A stretch of DNA of 64,000 bases from an uncultured Chloroflexia bacterium (GTDB taxonomy: Bacteria; Chloroflexota; Limnocylindria; Limnocylindrales; CSP1-4), in the NCBI GenBank assembly GCA_963746845.1, contig CAVVCZ010000005.1:192001-256000 (forward strand), written 5' to 3'. The notes beneath the pieces were generated by a model. That model worked only from the letters and a program-made list of their open reading frames with translations. It was not told where the DNA came from and did no database searches. Made by a program: the position numbers and the translations under genes. Of the stretch, positions 25,386 to 44,363 are shown in pieces. Every line of letters starts with the position of its first letter. Within the stretch, counting starts at the first letter, position 1.

Positions 25386-25462
25386 TTTCGGCAACCCGGC
25401 TGACTCGGAGAGTCCCGTGGCTTTGCGGCCCCGCCTCGCGACGGGTGTGCTATTTCGTGGAA
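25386..25462 (-). promoter_or_regulatory. GEMM-I cyclic-dinucleotide riboswitch, A20 variant
   Basis: Minus strand: GAAAUA-GC-ACA-CCCGUC-GCGA-GGCGGG-GCC-GC-AAAG-CCACGGGACUCUCCGAGUCAGCCGGGUUGCCG. Shows the GNRA-capped P2, GCAAAGC junction and P3, and runs into the SD of gene 25372. Confidence 0.88.
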
Positions 25463-37470: not shown

Positions 37471-39332
37471 TCGTCCGCCCCTTCCCACGTCTCGATCAGG
37501 TCGGACAGGCCCTTGCCGGCGGGCATCATCGGGAAGACGTTCTGCTCCTCGGCGATCTCGAACCAGACGAGGGCCGGTCCGTCGACCGCCTGGGCGGCGC
37601 GGATCGCCTCGTCGACGTCCTCGGGCCGCCTGGCCCGGAAAGCCGGGATCCCGAACGCGTCCGCGAGCTTGGCGAAGTCCGGGCCGGGCAGGTGGGCGGA
37701 GTGGTAGTTGCCCGCGTAGATGATCTCCTGCCACTGCCGGATCATCCCGAGCTTCTTGTTGTCGAGGAGCGCGATCTTCACCGGGATCCGGTCGGCGACG
37801 AGGGTCATCAGCTCCTGGAACGTCATCTGGAAGCCGCCGTCGCCCGTGATCGCCCAGGTCTCGCGCTCCGGGGCGCCGAGTGCCGCGCCCATCGCCGCGG
37901 GGACGCTGTAGCCCATCGTCCCGAGCCCACCCGAGCTGACGTGGGTGTTCGGCCGGCGGAACCCGGCGTACCGGGCGAGCCACATCTGGTTCTGGCCCAC
38001 GTCGGCGACGTACGTGGCGGCATGGTCCGTCAGCTCGCCGATCCGCTCGATCACGTAGTCGGCCGAGAGCAGCCCATCGCGCCAGGCGCCCGAGCCGTGC
38101 CACGAGCTGCCTTCCGACTCGCGTCGCCAATCCGCGAGCTCCGCGAAGTAGTCGGCGCGGACGGCCGGGTCGACCGGCTCGACCATCGGCAGGAGGGCCG
38201 CGAGCACACGCTTGGCGTCGCCGACGATCGGGACCTCGACCGCGACGTTCTTCCCGATCTCGGCCGGGTCGATGTCGACGTGGACGATCCGGGCGTACGG
38301 CGCGTAGGTCCGGACGTTGCCGGTGACGCGGTCGTCGAACCGCATCCCGATCGCGAGCAGCAGGTCCGCCGACTGGATCGCCCTGTTGACGTGCTTCCAG
38401 CCGTGCATCCCCATGTAGCCGTAGCTGAGCGGGTGCGTCTCGTCGATGGCGCCGATCCCGAGGAGCGTGTGCGCGACCGGGATCTGGGCCTTCTCGGCGA
38501 GCGCGACGAGCTCGTCCCAGGCCTCCGCATGGAGGACACCGTGGCCCGCGAGGATCACCGGCCGCTTCGCCTTCGCGAGCTCCGCGGCGGCGAGCTTCAG
38601 CTGGCGGCCGTTCGCGTCGAGATTCGGCCGGAAGCCGGGCAGCCCCGCGACGACCTCGTCGTGGGTCGGGTGGGGCGCCGACGTCTCCTGCTGGAGCGCG
38701 TCCTTCGTGATGTCGACGTGGACGGGCCCGGGCCGGCCGGACCGGGCGATGTGGAACGCCTCGGCCAGGACGCGCGGCAGGTCGTTCGCGTCCCGGACGA
38801 GGTAGTTGTGCTTCGTCATCGGCAGGGTGATGCCGTTGATGTCGATCTCCTGGAACGCGTCCTTGCCGATCAGGGCGGACGGGACGTTGCCGGTGATCGC
38901 GACCATCGGGACGGAGTCGAGGAGGGCCGTCCCGATCCCCGTCACGAGGTTCGTCGCGCCCGGTCCGGAGGTCCCCATGCAGACCCCGACCTGGCCGGTG
39001 ACCCGGGCGTAGCCGTCGGCGGCGTGGGCGCCGCCCTGCTCGTGCCGGACGAGGATGTGGCGGAGCTCCGGGTAGTCGCCGAGGACGTCGTACAGGGGCA
39101 GGATCACGCCGCCGGGGTAGCTGAAGAAGACGTCGACGCCCTGGAGGAGGAGGGCCTCGCAGACGACGTCGGCCCCGATCCGGGTCCGCTTCCTCGGTCG
39201 CGAATCGTCGAGCATCGCCCGGCGGGCGGCCTCGACCGCCGCCGCGTGGGCGGTCCCGTCGCCGGGGATGTGGCTGCGCCGATCCGTTGCCGGACTCGGC
39301 GGCGCGCCGGCCTTTCCTGTCGTCATCGTCAT
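37467..39332 (-). CDS. ilvB: Acetolactate synthase large subunit
   Basis: YPGG, RHEQG, SGPGATN, GMRFDDRV and GDGGFQM motifs; start placed downstream of the attenuator terminator. Confidence 0.95.
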   Translation of the reverse strand: MTMTTGKAGAPPSPATDRRSHIPGDGTAHAAAVEAARRAMLDDSRPRKRTRIGADVVCEALLLQGVDVFFSYPGGVILPLYDVLGDYPELRHILVRHEQGGAHAADGYARVTGQVGVCMGTSGPGATNLVTGIGTALLDSVPMVAITGNVPSALIGKDAFQEIDINGITLPMTKHNYLVRDANDLPRVLAEAFHIARSGRPGPVHVDITKDALQQETSAPHPTHDEVVAGLPGFRPNLDANGRQLKLAAAELAKAKRPVILAGHGVLHAEAWDELVALAEKAQIPVAHTLLGIGAIDETHPLSYGYMGMHGWKHVNRAIQSADLLLAIGMRFDDRVTGNVRTYAPYARIVHVDIDPAEIGKNVAVEVPIVGDAKRVLAALLPMVEPVDPAVRADYFAELADWRRESEGSSWHGSGAWRDGLLSADYVIERIGELTDHAATYVADVGQNQMWLARYAGFRRPNTHVSSGGLGTMGYSVPAAMGAALGAPERETWAITGDGGFQMTFQELMTLVADRIPVKIALLDNKKLGMIRQWQEIIYAGNYHSAHLPGPDFAKLADAFGIPAFRARRPEDVDEAIRAAQAVDGPALVWFEIAEEQNVFPMMPAGKGLSDLIETWEGADE

Positions 39333-39423
39333 CGGTCCCTGCCTGCCCTCATGTGTTCGCCGTCGCTCCTCGTCAGAGCGGCGCTCCCCTCTCCGCCGCG
39401 CTGTCGTCATCCGGTCGCCGGCC

Positions 39424-39455
39424 AACAAAAAGACCCTCGCCACCCGGCGAGGGTC
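39424..39455 (-). terminator. Intrinsic terminator of the ilv/leu attenuator
   Basis: GACCCUCGCC-GGGU-GGCGAGGGUC followed by UUUUUGUU on the minus strand. Confidence 0.9.
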
Positions 39456-39482
39456 CCGTTGGTCTGCGGTGGTTCGCTGCGC

Positions 39483-39626
39483 CTAGCGCCCGTCCCTCCG
39501 TGTTCCTCCGTTCTCCCGCCGGGAGCCGGTAATGAGGAGGCCGACGAGGCCGTCAAGACCGGCAAGGAGGAAGCGAAGAAGACCAAGGAGCGAACCGTCG
39601 TTGAGACCCGAATCATCGAGCGGCAT
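39483..39626 (-). CDS. Leu-rich attenuator leader peptide (47 aa)
   Basis: MPLDDSGLNDGSLLGLLRFLLAGLDGLVGLLITGSRRENGGTRRDGR; 12 Leu, several as CTT, which is rare here; directly before the terminator and ilvB. Confidence 0.75.
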   Translation of the reverse strand: MPLDDSGLNDGSLLGLLRFLLAGLDGLVGLLITGSRRENGGTRRDGR

Positions 39627-39829
39627 GTGGACGCGCCGACCATCCGTCGTCACGACGACGGCGACATGGCGACGATTCCGGCCATCGAACAGACCCAACG
39701 CGGTCTCCCGAACGCGGCCCGGTCGACCCGGGCGGTTTGCGCAGTCTACGAGGCGCCCGGTGATCATGCAACCACCCGGACCCCACGTGAGTGCTCGTGC
39801 CGTCACGAACCCCGATCGCCGGGAACTGA

Positions 39830-39857
39830 CGAGACCGCCGGTCGCCCGACGGTCTCG
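39830..39857 (-). terminator. 12-bp hairpin with GCGA loop closing the peptide transcript
   Basis: CGAGACCGUCGG-GCGA-CCGGCGGUCUCG, about 30 nt after the peptide 2 stop; no long U-tract. Confidence 0.6.
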
Positions 39858-39888
39858 CATGTTTCCGATCCCTCAGGGTGAGAGCCGG

Positions 39889-39993
39889 TCACAACTTCCA
39901 GCGCTGTCCCGCCTCGAGCACGAGAGCGGAGCTTGCGATGGCGGACACGACCATCAGAACTCGAAAGGCCTGAGCCTTCAGCATCCGAGTCAT
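39889..39993 (-). CDS. Small peptide 2 (34 aa) MTRMLKAQAFRVLMVVSAIASSALVLEAGQRWKL
   Basis: Hand-translated; starts 4 nt after the peptide 1 stop; ungapped homology to peptide 1; absent from the ORF track. Confidence 0.75.
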   Translation of the reverse strand: MTRMLKAQAFRVLMVVSAIASSALVLEAGQRWKL

Positions 39994-39997
39994 CTGG

Positions 39998-40087
39998 TCA
40001 ATACCAGCGCAGGCCGGCGCCGATCGTCAGGGCCAGCGACGCCACGAGCATCACTGCCCATGTGAGGCGCACCAGGTTGCCCTTCAC
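39998..40087 (-). CDS. Small peptide 1 (29 aa) MKGNLVRLTWAVMLVASLALTIGAGLRWY
   Basis: GGAAGGAG SD 6 nt before GTG 40087; directly downstream of the riboswitch. Confidence 0.8.
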   Translation of the reverse strand: MKGNLVRLTWAVMLVASLALTIGAGLRWY

Positions 40088-40119
40088 ATTCGACTCCTTC
40101 CGAGTCTGTCGAGGTCGTC

Positions 40120-40199
40120 GGCCCCTGGCAACCGGGCGGTCTTCCGGAGAAGATCCCTGGCTTTGCGTCCCCGCCTCGCGACGGGTTTGCCCTGGACAG
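40120..40199 (-). promoter_or_regulatory. c-di-GMP-I (GEMM-I) riboswitch, canonical G20
   Basis: Minus strand: CAGG-GC-AAA-CCCGUC-GCGA-GGCGGG-GAC-GC-AAAG-CCAGGGAUCUUCUCCGGAAGACCGCCCGGUUGCC, which matches the GEMM-I consensus. Confidence 0.92.
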
Positions 40200-40338
40200 T
40201 GAGCACGGCGGAGGGACACCCGTCCCTCGAACCCGACGATGGGCGGTTCGTCACCCCGTGGACACGGGACGAAGGTCCCGGCCCGCCTCGACGGGTGGGG
40301 GAGTTGTCGGCGGGCACCGCGCCGCCGGGACGGCCCGA

Positions 40339-40899
40339 TCAGGACGCGGCGAGGTCCCCGGCGGCGGCCGCGCCCTGCCGGCCCCGGCGCATCACGACGA
40401 CGAGCAGGACGAACACGCCGGCCGCCAGCAGGACGTCACCCACGCTGAAGACGTTCGCGAAGGGGACCCAGCGCGGAAGGGCGAACCGGTCGATCAGGAC
40501 CGGCAGGTTCGGGCTGGCGACGACGGCGCTGTTCGAGTAGATGGTCGGCGCCGTCTTGCCGAGGCTCGCGAGTGCCTCGGGCGTCGCCGGCATGAACCCG
40601 CCGTTCGTGATGATCGCGGCCATGTTGCAGGCGGCACCGAGGACGATCAGGGGCAGCCCGGGCAGATCGAGGTTGCGGAGGACGGCAACGACCACGAGCA
40701 GGGTCGTCGCGACGTACAGGATCGGACCGGCGTCGCCGACCCGGGACGCGACCGCGTCCGAGAACAGCACGACCTGACCGAGGAAGCCGACGACGATCAG
40801 CGGCGCCCACCGGAAGCGGATCTCCGCGATCGCCGAAAGCCGGCCGCCCGTGGCCAGTCCGACCACGATGCCCGCGACGAGGGCGTACAGGATGAACAT
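40339..40899 (-). CDS. DUF5317-like membrane protein, copy 2
   Basis: GGRL, NxxAIxxNGGxMP and DRFALPRWVPFANVFSVGD motifs; this is the C-terminal part of the 1034-aa track ORF. Confidence 0.85.
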   Translation of the reverse strand: MFILYALVAGIVVGLATGGRLSAIAEIRFRWAPLIVVGFLGQVVLFSDAVASRVGDAGPILYVATTLLVVVAVLRNLDLPGLPLIVLGAACNMAAIITNGGFMPATPEALASLGKTAPTIYSNSAVVASPNLPVLIDRFALPRWVPFANVFSVGDVLLAAGVFVLLVVVMRRGRQGAAAAGDLAAS

Positions 40900-40907
40900 C
40901 GTCCGTC

Positions 40908-43511
40908 CTAGCTCGCCGGCTGGATCGCGGTCCGGCGGGGCGCCGGCTCCGGGCGGACGGCGCCCGGCTTCGACCACAGGGCCGCGGCGATCGTCGGGCC
41001 GTCGGCGGGGCGGGCGAAGTAGTAGCCCTGGCCCAGCTCGCAGCCGAGGTCGCGCAGCGCGGTGAGCTGGCCCTCGTCCTCGATCCCCTCGGCCACGACC
41101 TGGAGGTTGAGCGTCCGGCCGAGGGCGATGATCGCCCGCGCGAACGCCCACTCGTCCGACGATGCCTCGGCGCTGCCGATGAACTCGCGGGCGATCTTCA
41201 GGATGTCGACCTGGAACCGGCGCAGGTAACCGAGCGACGAGTACCCGGTCCCGAAGTCGTCGATCGCGATCCGGATCCCGAGCGCCCGCAGGGCCTGCAG
41301 GCGGGCGATCGTCGTGTGCGTGTCGTGGAACATCGCCGACTCGGTCAGCTCGAGGATCAGGTCGGTCGCCGGGAAGCCCGTCTCGGTGAGGATCGACTCG
41401 ACGTCCTCGACGAACGTCGGCTGCTGGAGCTGGGCGGCGGACAGGTTGACGGACAGGGCGATCCGCTCCGTTCGCCGGTCCCGCCACGACTCGACCTCGC
41501 GGCAGCTCTCGTGGAGCATCCACCGGCCGAGGGCGAGGATCGTCCCGTTCTCCTCGGCGAGGCGGATGAACTCGTCCGGGCGGAGGATCCCGCGGGTCGG
41601 GTGGCGCCATCGGACGAGGGCCTCGACGCCGTACGTCGCCCCGGTCGCGAGCGTGACGATCGGCTGGAAGTGGGCGAGGAGCTCGCCGCGGCCGATGCTC
41701 TTCGTCAGCTCGGACGCGAGCGCATGTCGCTCGACGAGGGCGGCATGCATCGTCGACTCGAACACGGCATAGCGGTTCTTGCCGGCCGCTTTCGCGGTGT
41801 ACATCGCGACGTCGGCGTTGCGCAGCAGCTCGTCGGCCCGCTCGCTCTCCGCGCCGGCCCGGGCGGCGGCGACGCCGATGCTCGCGGCGATCGAGATCTC
41901 CTGCCCGTCGATCTGGAGCGGCGCCTGGAGCGCCTCGAGGATCCGCCGGCAGACTGCGATGCTCTCGGACAGGTCGGCCGTGTCCTCGAGGAGGATCGCG
42001 AATTCGTCGCCGCCGAGCCGCGCCGCGAGGTCGGTGGCCCGGACGCAGCCGCGGACGCGATCCCCGACGGCGATCAGGAGCCGGTCGCCGGCCACGTGTC
42101 CGAGCGTGTCGTTGACCACCTTGAAGTCGTCGAGGTCGATGAACAGGACGACGGGCCGGCGGATACCGCTGTCGGCCAGGATCCGACCATCCACCTGCTC
42201 GACGAACAGGCTCCGGTTCGCGAGCCCGGTCAGCGGGTCGTGATAGGCCTGGAACCGGAGCTGCTCCTTGAGCCGCGACAGCTCGGCCAGCGACTGCTCC
42301 AGCTGACCGTTCTCCAGGGCGACCGCGGCCTGGTTCGCGAGCGTCTCGAGCAGCCGCAGGTCGTCGTCGGTGAAGACCGTCCCCTCGGTCAGGCGGTTGC
42401 CGACGAGCATCGAGCCGATCAGGGTGGACTCGCCGCGGAGCGGGGCGACCATCGCCTGGCGCAGGGTCGCCCGCTCCGGTTCGAACGGCGACGGGCTGAA
42501 GAAGAACGCGTGCGGCTCGTTCCGGATCCGGCGGGCGATCGGATCGTCCGGCGTGAACGGCACCGGGACCATGGCCGTCGCGGGCGCGCCGTCGATGCTC
42601 GTCGTCCGGAGCGCGTCCTCGCCGGGGATCCGCGGATGGAGCAGCACCTCGGCGCGCTCGGCGCGGAACATCTCGCGGGCGTGGTCGAGCAGGGCGACGA
42701 TCGCCGAGTCGAGCTCCGGCGAGTGCTGGAGGATCCGCCCGGACTGGTACAGGAACTCGAGCCGCTCGCCCTTCTCGCGCTCCGACAGATAGGCCCGGTA
42801 GGCGAGGAAGACCGTCACGAGCGGGACGATCAGGAGCCAGAGCAGGCCCGGGTCGAGCCACAGGATCGACACGGCCAGGAGCGCCAGGCTCGTGTTGGCG
42901 ACGGCGACGAGGCCGCCGAACTGGATCATCTGTGGCAGCTTCTGGAACTGCGGCGCGCCGCCCGACAGCGAGATCGCCGTGGCGATCGTCACCGCCGACA
43001 GCACGGTCGTCGTCAGCGTCGCGGCGAACGCCGCCACCCAGTCCGCAGCGCTGGGCGTCCCCTCCAGGTTCGCGATCAGGTGGAACACGACGAGCGCGGC
43101 GGTCGCGCCCAGCCCGAAGTTGGTCACGTTGAACGCGAACTTCAGGGGAGGCTGGCGGAACCAGGCAAGCGCCACGGCGGACCCGATCAGGATCACGGCG
43201 AGGATGTAGTCGTGCGGACTGAGGAGGAACAGCCCGATGACGGCCGGGAACTCGCTCAGCGAGAAGCTGTGGGCCTCGCGCCGGAAGTGGACGTCGATGA
43301 CCTTCAGCTCGGCCAGGCAGAAGCCCGCAGCGATCAGGGGCCACGGGAAGTCGATCGGGACGAGGGAGACGTGCGGCCGCGGCTCGATGACCAGGATGTC
43401 GAGGAGGACGGCGACCAGGGCGAGCGAGGCCGTGAAGGCCCACACCCGGAGCGCGGGCGAGCCGACACCGACGCGCAGCCGCTCGAGGCTGCGCCCGCCG
43501 GCGGCGACCAT
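40908..43511 (-). CDS. Membrane-bound diguanylate cyclase/phosphodiesterase (multi-TM sensor - GAF-like - GGDEF - EAL)
   Basis: About 6-7 TM N-terminus; DPLTGLANR, DLDDFKVVND, GGDEF; EALVRW, ELTES, DDFGTGYSS, VAEGIE and QGYYF, so both active sites look intact. Start may be further upstream. Confidence 0.93.
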   Translation of the reverse strand: MVAAGGRSLERLRVGVGSPALRVWAFTASLALVAVLLDILVIEPRPHVSLVPIDFPWPLIAAGFCLAELKVIDVHFRREAHSFSLSEFPAVIGLFLLSPHDYILAVILIGSAVALAWFRQPPLKFAFNVTNFGLGATAALVVFHLIANLEGTPSAADWVAAFAATLTTTVLSAVTIATAISLSGGAPQFQKLPQMIQFGGLVAVANTSLALLAVSILWLDPGLLWLLIVPLVTVFLAYRAYLSEREKGERLEFLYQSGRILQHSPELDSAIVALLDHAREMFRAERAEVLLHPRIPGEDALRTTSIDGAPATAMVPVPFTPDDPIARRIRNEPHAFFFSPSPFEPERATLRQAMVAPLRGESTLIGSMLVGNRLTEGTVFTDDDLRLLETLANQAAVALENGQLEQSLAELSRLKEQLRFQAYHDPLTGLANRSLFVEQVDGRILADSGIRRPVVLFIDLDDFKVVNDTLGHVAGDRLLIAVGDRVRGCVRATDLAARLGGDEFAILLEDTADLSESIAVCRRILEALQAPLQIDGQEISIAASIGVAAARAGAESERADELLRNADVAMYTAKAAGKNRYAVFESTMHAALVERHALASELTKSIGRGELLAHFQPIVTLATGATYGVEALVRWRHPTRGILRPDEFIRLAEENGTILALGRWMLHESCREVESWRDRRTERIALSVNLSAAQLQQPTFVEDVESILTETGFPATDLILELTESAMFHDTHTTIARLQALRALGIRIAIDDFGTGYSSLGYLRRFQVDILKIAREFIGSAEASSDEWAFARAIIALGRTLNLQVVAEGIEDEGQLTALRDLGCELGQGYYFARPADGPTIAAALWSKPGAVRPEPAPRRTAIQPAS

Positions 43512-43677
43512 GTCCTGTTCGAGATCGTCCTTCGCTCGGACCGTCGCCGGGCGTCCTGGCGGATTCCCGCCCACGCGCGCCTCCATTCCGTCCCGTGGCA
43601 CCTGTTGTACGCGTCGAACCGACGATCGGGGCGTAGGTCCGAGGTACCGCGGCGCGCAGGACGAATCGCGCGGACGG

Positions 43678-44244
43678 TCAGGAAGTTGGCGCGTCCGCGG
43701 GTCGGTCCGGGGTCCCGTCGGCGCGCCGCTCCCGGCGCATCGCCGCGGCGATCGCGACAGCGACCCCGACCCCGATCAGCACGTCGCCGACGCTGAAGAC
43801 GTTGGCCATCGGCAGCCACGCGGGCAGCGCGAAGACGTCGGTCAGCGGCTCGAGGGCTGGTCGTTCGACCACGACGCTGTTCGTGTTCGGGCCGACGCCC
43901 ATTCCGAGGGTCGCCAGCGCGGCCGGGCTGGCGGGCATCGCTCCGCCGTTCGCGAGGATGGCCGCGAGGTTGAGGCCGGCCCCGACCGCGATCAGCGGGA
44001 CGCCGGTGATCCCGAGGTTGGCGAGGACGACGATCCCGACGAGGGCGGTCGACCCGACGTAGATGGCCCGTGCGACGTCCGGGGCGAGGCCGTCCGCCAG
44101 CGGTGAGAAGAGGACGAGCTGGATCGCCAGGGCGACGAAGACAAGTGGGCCGAGCCGGAAGTGGACCTCAGCCAGCCGCTCGAGGCGACCGCCGAGAAGC
44201 AGCCCGACGACGATCCCGGCGATGAGCCCATAGAGGATGAACAC
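43678..44244 (-). CDS. DUF5317-like membrane protein, copy 1
   Basis: Paralog of 40339-40899 (NLAAILANGGAMP; DVFALPAWLPMANVFSVGD); GATACT -10-like box 6 nt before GTG 44244. Confidence 0.85.
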   Translation of the reverse strand: MFILYGLIAGIVVGLLLGGRLERLAEVHFRLGPLVFVALAIQLVLFSPLADGLAPDVARAIYVGSTALVGIVVLANLGITGVPLIAVGAGLNLAAILANGGAMPASPAALATLGMGVGPNTNSVVVERPALEPLTDVFALPAWLPMANVFSVGDVLIGVGVAVAIAAAMRRERRADGTPDRPADAPTS

Positions 44245-44363
44245 GGTCCCAGTATCCGCGGCTGTGGGGCGTCGGCGCGGGGTCGGCGAGGCGGAGCCGG
44301 GCCCTGTGCTAGCCTCCGGCTCGTCTTGCACCCCCCGCCCAACCGCCTGCAGCCCGGACCACC

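Follow-up and report, generated by a model that had tools for sequence, protein, structure and literature searches.

Two tandem paralogous micro-peptides behind a c-di-GMP-I-type (GGC variant) riboswitch, beside DUF5317 and GGDEF-EAL genes in the Limnocylindria

The stretch of DNA considered here, referred to as the window, comprises 64 kilobases (64,000 nucleotides, nt; G+C 71%) from an uncultured Chloroflexia bacterium (assembly GCA_963746845.1, contig CAVVCZ010000005.1, positions 192,001 to 256,000), and its minus strand carries two adjacent and very short open reading frames (ORFs) that are the subject of this work. Peptide 1 (P1, an A-type micro-ORF; 39998..40087) has 29 codons plus TGA, opens with GTG and encodes MKGNLVRLTWAVMLVASLALTIGAGLRWY; peptide 2 (P2, a B-type micro-ORF; 39889..39993) has 34 codons plus TGA, opens with ATG and encodes MTRMLKAQAFRVLMVVSAIASSALVLEAGQRWKL. 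The GTG of peptide 1 at 40087, the conserved start of the A-type ORF, has AAGGAG 6 nt upstream. By contrast, the ATG of peptide 2 stands 4 nt past the peptide 1 stop codon, without a Shine-Dalgarno (SD) sequence of its own. In 40 related cassettes with both ORFs the spacer from A stop to B start ranges from -4 to 11 nt, most often being 4 nt (15 cassettes) or 2 nt (12 cassettes). Given this spacing and the lack of a separate SD sequence, translation of peptide 2 is probably coupled to that of peptide 1. The first-pass annotation of this DNA, made from its letters and a list of ORFs, held that the ORF track gives peptide 1 a false start and misses peptide 2. The former point stands, the longest ORF of peptide 1 opening at GTG 40219 and reading through a riboswitch aptamer; as to the latter, peptide 2 appears in the ORF listing once the floor is lowered to 20 residues.

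The likeness between the two peptides exceeds chance. Aligned without gaps they share 11 of 29 residues (K2, R7, V12, A16, S17, A19, L20, A24, G25, R27 and W28), and at least 11 ungapped identities were reached in 2 of 20000 composition-preserving shuffles of peptide 2, for which the mean was 5.7. Comparison of profiles built from the A and B orthologs pairs 28 columns without gaps (probability 95.5%, E 1.4e-8). At the DNA level, 40 of the 84 bases in the 28 aligned codons are identical, with agreement at 10 of the 28 third positions. Thus peptides 1 and 2 are two genuine paralogous micro-genes, and both the tandem paralogy seen in the first-pass annotation and its observation that the DNA has diverged while the protein was kept are confirmed.

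Related loci were gathered in four ways: via the riboswitch, by six-frame profile search of genomes from the class and the phylum, by pattern-scanning a set in which each prokaryotic species is represented by a single genome, and by direct fetching of the region. The first 101 such loci reduce to 78 distinct cassettes, of which 41 have A followed by B, 10 have A alone and 27 have B alone. Both ORFs evolve as coding sequences. The ratio of non-synonymous to synonymous differences (pN/pS) is 0.40 in frame for the A type (50 distinct DNA sequences), where the shifted frames give 1.04 and 2.31; for the B type (62 distinct DNA sequences) it is 0.31, and 1.41 and 2.89 when shifted. The G+C content of third codon positions is 0.89 for A and 0.82 for B, and in both types variability falls in the order of codon positions 3 > 1 > 2. 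Among 51 distinct A-type ORFs, GTG is the start codon in 48, and an SD-like sequence lies upstream in 50. Selection on the protein, as had been proposed for both ORFs, is therefore borne out, and the accompanying check for homologous loci with broken ORFs found stops and frameshifts to be rare, one of the 41 A+B cassettes being disrupted in frame.

The two peptides are built to one plan. Each has two or three basic residues at the N terminus followed by a single hydrophobic stretch of about 18 residues of membrane-helix grade (best 17-residue hydropathy window 2.00 in peptide 1 and 2.11 in peptide 2), and each ends in [ILV]-x-A-G-x-R-W plus none to two further residues, which agrees with the basic N terminus, hydrophobic core and short Trp-containing tail described at first. 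Across 44 distinct A proteins K2, L5, R7, A24, G25 and W28 are invariant; T9, A19, L20, G23 and R27 are conserved in at least 93% (A19 93%, L20 95%, G23 98%), and T21 in 84%. Position 26, between G25 and R27, varies, as does the tail past W28. Directly after A-G the A type has M, I, L, V or Y and the B type Q, H, R, K or L, and the residues preceding x-R-W are G-A-G in the A type and E-A-G in the B type, with Glu in 53 of 54 B proteins; the apparent invariance of the B helix is in part built in by construction, since the scan pattern was AS[SL]A[LIV]V[LI]EAG. In most copies only 2-5 residues follow A-G, there being neither a Cys at +1, as in a lipobox, nor a mature domain.

The detailed pattern of conservation in one lineage bears on which part of the peptide matters. 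In f4, one of the families of the class (here f1 to f5), the second ORF has a polar, proline-rich and hypervariable N-terminal part in 10 of 12 loci (L129-L134, L136, L137, L139 and L140; an example is MYAFVCNSDDRLQAAPTVPAPLDLVIRAGHRWY). Its hydropathy, computed for three copies, is 0.07-1.0, i.e. there is no membrane helix, and yet the invariant sequence [DE]LV[IVL]RAGHRW[YN] is kept directly before the stop. Over the last 12 codons of these polar B ORFs there are 145 synonymous and 98 non-synonymous codon differences, as against 26/207 and 3/227 in the shifted frames. Because the polar form retains this end after losing the hydrophobic helix, it can be inferred that the C-terminal [ILV]-x-A-G-x-R-W is the element under selection. 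From these sequences the helix looks like a means of bringing the C-terminal motif to the membrane.

Pfam and NCBIfam contain no family for peptide 1, for peptide 2 or for the three other products searched (a 71-residue ORF, a 125-residue ORF and a 31-residue peptide), and matches in the ESM Atlas are to unnamed clusters of 33 residues only. A profile search of 1.84 billion representative proteins returned 134 clusters that are B-like; 33 of these reach E <= 1e-10, and most of the 134 are annotated with false N-terminal extensions. In one protein of 70 residues (P0039) an A-type peptide lacking R-W-stop runs directly into a B-type peptide, as the result of either a natural fusion or a sequencing error.

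The element upstream of peptide 1 is a c-di-GMP-I-GGC riboswitch aptamer (c-di-GMP being cyclic di-guanosine monophosphate; Rfam RF03167, clan CL00126) at 40123..40200 on the minus strand. At 63.2 bits (E 6.9e-14; model positions 1-80) it exceeds the gathering score, which is 59, and so belongs to the family; a whole-genome search with RF03167 returns the same result at 40200..40123, confirming the riboswitch that had been placed in front of peptide 1. In 42 related leaders the aptamer helices comprise 21 consensus pairs, 6 of which show compensatory changes, including in the 4-bp P1 stem and the P3 tip, and the aptamer core is almost invariant. We infer c-di-GMP as the ligand from the Rfam name of the GGC variant and from a neighbouring GGDEF-EAL gene.

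Between aptamer and start codon lies a linker of 35 nt (40088..40122, minus strand) with the SD-bearing sequence GGAAGGAG at 40101..40094, half buried by a hairpin in which GACTC at 40106..40102 pairs with GAGTC at 40096..40092. Local minimum-energy folds have the SD tetramer mostly paired in 39 of the 42 related leaders. Mean SD accessibility is 0.42 when these leaders are folded freely, 0.42 with the P1 stem forced and 0.43 with the P1 stem blocked, so that no ligand-dependent change is visible in the folds, and RNAalifold on the same leaders recovers the aptamer only. A further hairpin lies at about 40218..40240 on the minus strand, 10-20 nt upstream of the aptamer, and recurs in the same place in 36 of the 42 leaders. 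Its stem covaries (GAGGGAC/GTCCCTC here, GAGACGA/TCGTCTC and GCGACA/TGTCGC elsewhere), and its 3' arm is often anti-SD-like (CCUCC); it could belong to the expression platform or else form the 3' terminus of the transcript of the preceding gene, which encodes a DUF5317 protein. A promoter scan of 39300-40450 found no sigma-70-like site, although promoters of this phylum may deviate from the model used. Downstream, a GC-rich hairpin of 11 bp with the loop GCGA (39831..39856, minus strand) lies 33 nt past the peptide 2 stop; it has no U-tract and could be the end, or a stabiliser, of a micro-operon transcript. Metatranscriptome contigs from four libraries of four studies span both the aptamer-peptide 1 and the peptide 1-peptide 2 junctions, examples being a contig of 151 nt over 40011-40161 (1 difference) and one of 184 nt over 39997-40180, and these give weak support to co-transcription of aptamer, peptide 1 and peptide 2. 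Some parts, e.g. 40216-40317, have no RNA-contig cover and are left uninterpreted.

Peptides 1 and 2 are the whole cargo of this c-di-GMP-I-type (GGC variant) riboswitch, and the association of aptamer with A-type peptide is regular. An aptamer of the c-di-GMP-I clan precedes all 50 assessable A or A+B cassettes, 44 being recognised by sequence pattern and 6 by Rfam; the remaining cassette of the 51 has just 3 nt of flank and is not counted among the 50. The family f4 likewise has aptamer and A-type peptide together in 12 of 12 fetched loci. The converse view, from the riboswitch, rests on 33 RF03167 loci, 4 being the matches in the genome analysed here and 29 from relatives. In 19 of the 33 an A-type or chimeric peptide follows within 30-41 nt, and in 5 there are other hydrophobic micro-ORFs of 31-36 codons, such that 24 of 33 precede ORFs of at most 37 codons. 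Proteins of about 133 residues or more follow in 5 loci (4 complete, of 133-153 residues, and 1 cut by the locus end), larger secreted-looking proteins in 3, and in 1 there is no SD-bearing ORF. B-type genes are less strictly bound: among the 27 B-only cassettes an aptamer is present in 7, none reaches the Rfam gathering score in 18, and 2 are not assessable. Since 18 of 27 lack an aptamer at the gathering score, B is also a riboswitch-independent paralog.

The same genome holds further members of both classes of element. A stand-alone B-type gene lies at C5:287364-287453 (+) and encodes MQKVKSLGFRIVLVLSALASSALVLEAGQRWR, and there are two weaker peptide-like matches at C5:300852-300926 (-) and C1:67609-67680 (+); a third DUF5317-like gene, a distant one (C1:69576-69965), lies some 2 kb from the latter match. 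Two further RF03167-type aptamers score just below the gathering score, at 25386..25459 (-) in the window (58.7 bits) and at C4:602085-602157 (-) (58.3 bits). Each is followed 13 nt later by one of two paralogous proteins that have a hydrophobic segment at the N terminus and exceed 295 residues in the stretch read (MFWDGDQWASEP and MFRHGDRWASEP); by their sequences these look like secreted or membrane-anchored targets of c-di-GMP. The other RF03167 micro-ORFs, hydrophobic, of 31-36 codons and unrelated to A and B, are L001 (this genome, C4:727366-727463 +; MSTARPRLVALLRVLVVAVVALAASASARPI), L005, L006, L010 and L013, and several of their peptides end in A-x-A plus 2-4 residues. The proteins of about 133 residues or more are those of L008, L009, L011, L012 (the one cut off) and L031. 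In L008, L009, L011 and L012, not in L031, the N terminus (e.g. KHSGQAVLEGALVSLLVVGL) has a Gly, a Glu five residues on and a hydrophobic stretch, which we take to resemble a type IV pilin-like class III signal.

Upstream of the riboswitch on the minus strand is the gene for a DUF5317 membrane protein of 186 residues, here type 1 (40339..40899; Pfam PF17248, E 2e-26), and before it that for a membrane-anchored GAF-GGDEF-EAL protein of 897 residues with a multi-pass N-terminal region (40908..43601, minus strand; Pfam EAL 7.9e-77, GGDEF 1.6e-43, GAF 4e-11). A second DUF5317 paralog, type 2, found by tblastn within the genome and 54% identical to type 1, lies upstream of the GGDEF-EAL gene (43777..44247, minus strand). 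The order of the module is thus GAF-GGDEF-EAL enzyme, DUF5317, riboswitch, peptide A and, usually, peptide B last. With at least 600 nt of upstream flank available for 46 of the 51 A or A+B cassettes, a DUF5317 gene is found upstream on the same strand in 42 of the 46; its end lies 223-489 nt ahead of the A start in 39, and 3 of the 42 are second cassettes of a tandem pair. Most cassettes with an upstream DUF5317 gene also have the GGDEF-EAL gene before it, and in the 4 without one, a GGDEF-EAL gene directly adjoins the cassette on the upstream side in one case and on the downstream side in another. DUF5317 and A are likewise adjacent in 15 of the 15 f4 genomes for which both positions are listed. 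In some loci two complete aptamer-plus-peptide cassettes stand in tandem behind one DUF5317 gene (L023, L026 and L040; also L059 and L060).

By contrast, the genes downstream change. Of 51 f1 cassettes, 31 have the acetolactate synthase gene ilvB behind them on the same strand; it is absent from three loci with 5 kb of downstream sequence and lies about 2 kb from the cassette in L086 and L097. In f4 it follows in none of 10 loci, its place being taken, in the five loci whose genes were examined (L143, L145, L146, L147 and L150), by infC-rplT-pheS, an Lhr helicase or the ammonium transporter Amt. This variation, the duplication of a whole "DUF5317 + aptamer + peptide" unit in L047, and the pairing in L029, L033 and L047 of a type-2 DUF5317 gene with an aptamer and a chimeric peptide (A-like N terminus, B-like body) place the cassette with its upstream genes. 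Between cassette and ilvB are a conserved minus-strand ORF at 39698..39483, probably of 71 residues from a TTG start and with a Leu-rich C-terminal part, and then the sole intrinsic terminator of the region, with a U-tract (39457..39430). In relatives this ORF is 47-81% identical, whereas its antisense frame is 33-62% identical. ORF and terminator accompany ilvB, not the cassette, in L086 and L097. By sequence it is a candidate leader or attenuator, or a small tail-anchored protein; the true start of ilvB is probably downstream of the annotated GTG at 39443.

The module was found only in two families, f1 and f4, of the class Limnocylindria. Among 401 genomes of the class the A-type profile has 72 matches, distributed over f1 (44/137), f4 (26/153) and f3 (1/92, weak), with none in f2 (0/16) or f5 (0/2); among 401 genomes of the phylum it has 7, all in f1 and f4. 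The aptamer follows a similar line in 100 relatives (101 genomes including G000), RF03167 being present in 53 of 60 from f1 and in none of 40 from f2, a family of small genomes. DUF5317 is present in 71 of the 72 A-positive genomes, the exception being the weak f3 match. The closest loci are in metagenome-assembled genomes (MAGs) labelled Candidatus Limnocylindrales, Chloroflexota and CSP1-4, the order lying within the class Candidatus Limnocylindria. Of the 56 loci from the pattern scan, 7 carry labels from outside the Chloroflexota (Verrucomicrobiia 4, Deltaproteobacteria 1, Gemmatimonadales 1, Sulfomarinibacteraceae 1); these are suspected to be binning or labelling errors, since those inspected have the same gene order. 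Shares of sequencing runs are all <=0.31, and no claim about habitat is drawn from them.

The available evidence is best accommodated, tentatively and at somewhat short of an even chance, if peptides 1 and 2 are c-di-GMP-gated membrane micro-proteins that act via their C-terminal motif on DUF5317 or on the membrane domain of the enzyme, as a feedback or output arm. On this proposal the level of c-di-GMP, which the enzyme of the module could itself both make and degrade, would set the amount of peptide through the riboswitch, in either direction (ON or OFF by c-di-GMP). Peptide 2 would probably be made by ribosomes that have just completed peptide 1. The peptides would insert in the membrane with the N terminus inside, and the conserved C-terminal motif would act on a membrane partner from the same module. 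The likeliest partner would be the adjacent DUF5317 protein, for which the peptides may serve as regulator, pseudo-substrate or substrate; a less likely one is the membrane domain of the GGDEF-EAL enzyme. The peptides would thereby form the feedback or output arm of local c-di-GMP signalling. Of the two functions guessed at in the first-pass annotation, that of single-pass membrane regulators of the adjacent enzyme fits better, with the correction that the conserved neighbours are the upstream DUF5317 and GAF-GGDEF-EAL genes (42/46), not the downstream acetolactate synthase, which is replaced in f4.

Several observations weigh against this proposal. DUF5317 is far commoner (307 of 401 class genomes) than the A peptide (72 of 401) and hence does not need the peptides, and the 18 stand-alone B genes without an aptamer at the gathering score also have no DUF5317 gene nearby. 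The polar B variant means that a membrane helix is dispensable for whatever the C-terminal motif does. All of the relatives fall within one class, so the conserved gene order is partly a matter of shared descent. The disrupted A+B cassette (L032 = L094, in a long-read MAG that is 59% complete) has the N terminus of B out of frame, and the 134 B-related clusters include 1 A-B fusion and 3 stop read-throughs. Moreover, the RNA contigs are strandless, and RNA libraries may carry DNA.

The nature of DUF5317 itself can be approached through its possible likeness to signal peptidase II (LspA), and here too part of the evidence goes against the proposal. The AlphaFold2 model of DUF5317 is confident and mostly helical (predicted local distance difference test score 88.4, predicted template modelling score 0.81). 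Foldseek against the PDB gave nothing at E <= 0.001, and a profile search of PDB sequences gave nothing at E <= 10. An exhaustive structural scan (VIA-align) reached a best Z of only 6.4, with LspA structures at Z 5.7 (6ryp_A; root-mean-square deviation 3.6, 98 residues aligned, 14% identity) and Z 5.3 (5dir_A; 2.8, 92 residues, 15%), Z values of 5-6 being within the noise for helical bundles, although these two entries have the highest sequence identities in the structural list. Weak Pfam matches to Peptidase_A8 (PF01252) occur in 7 of 21 DUF5317 proteins and always place residues of about 75-170 on profile positions 79-141, the catalytic half; the best, at 18.3 bits (E 0.0028), falls under the 25-bit cut-off, so that by score DUF5317 lies outside the family. 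Alignment of DUF5317 with LspA by hhalign gave a probability of 1.4% at full length and of 14% when only the C-terminal halves were compared, with a different register preferred. On the other side, D137, F151 and D155 (F-S-x-G-D), all invariant in DUF5317, are spaced 14 + 4, just as are D105, F119 and D123 in 14 LspA sequences of the class, and G88-A89-x-x-N92 parallels G89-A90-x-x-N93 of LspA. The two membrane-embedded Asp that mark LspA stand in V-x-D and F-N-x-A-D contexts. A regular LspA is present elsewhere in the genome. That DUF5317 is a signal-peptidase-II-like enzyme is possible as a lead only, the opposite being the better bet.

Among longer forms of DUF5317, 7 matches include one EAL + DUF5317 and two fusions to major facilitator superfamily (MFS) transporters, with no recurrent GGDEF fusion among the 7. 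The MFS-transporter fusions are of about 595 residues, and together with the EAL + DUF5317 call and a DUF5317 protein that one source labels 'lipoprotein signal peptidase' they were noted under P0140, P0141, P0135 and P0215. The literature searched contained no mention or function of DUF5317. Prediction of a complex of DUF5317 with peptides 1 and 2 (with alignments, peptide 2 being taken as the partner) scored 0.20, below the 0.32 mark and hence without a verdict, and is used neither for nor against binding.

A narrower form of the proposal, improbable on these sequences, would make DUF5317 an intramembrane aspartyl peptidase, divergent but signal-peptidase-II-like, and would assign the A-G-x-R-W micropeptides to it alone, as substrates or pseudo-substrates that carry no cargo. 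If true, the module would be a self-contained c-di-GMP-gated peptide-processing device, which either releases an x-R-W signal of 3-5 residues outside or whose peptides switch the peptidase on or off. The literature searched held no riboswitch-controlled protease-substrate pair.

The alternative guess of the first-pass annotation was that the peptides are pheromone precursors, and in form they are indeed signal-peptide-like. As exported oligopeptide signals they would be cut after A-G, by signal peptidase or by an LspA-like DUF5317, to free x-R-W(-x), of 3-5 residues. A positive n-region, an h-region of about 16 residues and a small-x-small sequence (G-A-G in A) followed by 2-5 residues are what such a precursor would have; the variation between strains of the residue past A-G and of the tail past W is pherotype-like, the A-x-A endings of the other micro-ORFs behind the same riboswitch class (L001, L005, L006, L010, L013) are of the same kind, and the neighbouring DUF5317 is weakly signal-peptidase-II-like. 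The hydrophobic segment, however, is conserved residue by residue (A19, L20, T21 and G23 in A, at the levels given above), which is unlike ordinary signal peptides; the Glu of B at -3 is unfavourable for signal peptidase I, and with no Cys at +1 there is no lipobox. The polar B, without an export signal, still keeps the motif, and no receptor, transporter or C39-peptidase gene accompanies the cassette in the flanks examined. A chain of 29 residues is moreover too short for co-translational Sec targeting. Export as a signal is therefore unlikely. The sequence [ILV]-x-A-G also resembles the cleavage motif of double-glycine leaders; this candidate was rejected, there being no C39-peptidase transporter in the flanks examined, although the genome was not searched for one. 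It is quite unlikely that the peptides are type I toxin-like or holin-like, giving a c-di-GMP-controlled depolarisation for dormancy, lysis or release of biofilm matrix. Their size, single hydrophobic helix and charged ends do resemble type I toxins, and tight gating by a riboswitch and a partly buried SD sequence, as well as several paralogs per genome, would suit a toxin. A generic membrane poison would not be expected to have a strict C-terminal motif, kept in a non-hydrophobic variant, or a fixed DUF5317 neighbour; an antisense or overlapping RNA partner was not seen, though no search was aimed at one.

Two further explanations would make translation itself, not the finished peptide, the functional event. 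There is a slim chance that the ORFs encode regulatory nascent peptides, the last 10 or so residues of which stall the ribosome at or near the stop and so control read-through, the stability of the mRNA or translation of the ORF that follows, with no function left for the free peptides. The f4 B type, with its hypervariable N terminus and invariant end before the stop, has the pattern of an arrest peptide, B depends on ribosomes terminating on A, and I-R-A-G recalls the arrest motifs R-A-G-P, which is that of SecM, and R-A-P-P. Yet these known arrests need proline, the prolines of R-A-P-P being described as essential in ApdA and ApdP (PMC7897499), and the motif here is without Pro. Its Arg, moreover, is Glu in the f1 B type and Gly in A, nothing downstream of B is conserved that might be regulated, and A also conserves the N-terminal K2, L5 and R7 and the helix; a chain of 29 residues would stay in the exit tunnel, with no force to be sensed. 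Thus the ORFs have neither the prolines nor the regulated downstream ORF of the SecM and R-A-P-P arrest peptides. The reading as attenuation leaders of an ilvB-ilvN operon downstream is so improbable that it was rejected. It would account for the frequency of ilvB behind f1 cassettes and for peptides rich in Leu, Val and Ile, but ilvB is absent from the f4 loci and some f1 loci and stands at a distance in others, the invariant residues are non-branched (K, R, A, S, G, W) with no runs of regulatory codons, and ilvB has its own conserved ORF and terminator, with which it travels.

If the preferred reading is set beside what is understood of c-di-GMP control, its wider interest becomes apparent. 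Riboswitches for c-di-GMP are common and many of their targets are unannotated; small proteins were, to our knowledge, first reported among these targets as late as 2026, from a single pathogen. Peptides 1 and 2 look like a new small-protein output of this second messenger, from an apparently unrelated and much smaller family (29-34 residues) that is the main cargo of the GGC variant in a class of uncultivated soil and freshwater Chloroflexota. Such ORFs receive a false start in standard gene calling or fall below its usual length floor and are dropped. The function of DUF5317, a family of membrane proteins present in 307 of the 401 class genomes, becomes approachable for the first time through this locus, which also defines a short, testable motif, the C-terminal A-G-x-R-W, that is common to membrane and non-membrane versions. 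The literature searched contained nothing on Limnocylindria with c-di-GMP.

In comparison with known systems, the peptides share with signal peptides the n-, h- and c-regions and an A-G at -2/-1, as in the commonest lipobox, and their neighbour is weakly co-linear with the catalytic half of signal peptidase II. They differ in having no Cys at +1, no mature domain and, in B, a Glu at -3, and DUF5317 scores below the PF01252 cut-off. Phr and arbitrium precursors, of about 40-60 residues, give products of 5-6 residues and have the gene for a cognate cytoplasmic receptor next door. With these the present peptides have in common a short precursor that begins like a signal peptide and would yield from its C terminus a very short product differing between strains, whereas no receptor gene lies beside the cassette in the flanks examined. 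Closer in build are the small single-pass membrane regulators of larger membrane proteins, such as MgrB, MgtR, AcrZ and KdpF: these too are of about 30-50 residues, have one helix in which small and polar residues are conserved, and have their genes next to the partner's operon or inside it. By contrast with them, the present peptides are under riboswitch control, come as two coupled paralogs and have a motif that survives in a non-membrane variant, and their partner is a proposed one.

The nearest parallel in control is in Clostridioides difficile. A literature search on c-di-GMP riboswitches with small transmembrane proteins returned the C. difficile paper and one unrelated Vibrio paper. According to the former, class I c-di-GMP riboswitches control a family of membrane-associated small proteins of 58 residues that promote sporulation, some paralogs being without a riboswitch, and the paper reports no homologs outside C. 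difficile (PMC13724677, 2026). Peptides 1 and 2 share several traits with this type, that of CD1980.2 (PMC13724677): in both there are small ORFs, missed or mis-annotated, directly downstream of c-di-GMP-I riboswitches, with a hydrophobic segment, with several paralogs per genome of which some are riboswitch-free, and with a place, here a proposed one, as an output of c-di-GMP signalling. Peptide 1 indeed starts 35 nt past its aptamer. The C. difficile proteins, however, have 58 residues in four predicted helices, including a C-terminal hydrophobic one, and act on sporulation (PMC13724677), whereas A and B have 29-34 residues, one helix and an invariant A-G-x-R-W end, form a coupled pair, and stand in the Chloroflexota, fixed beside DUF5317 and a GGDEF-EAL gene; they are set apart by this architecture. 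With 29 and 34 residues and one hydrophobic stretch each, where about 58 residues and four helices would mark that family, peptides 1 and 2 are outside it, though perhaps alike in their working. The kind of system is thus already known, from the C. difficile small proteins, and what is new is the unannotated peptide family, its occurrence in the Chloroflexota and its linkage to DUF5317 and GGDEF-EAL genes.

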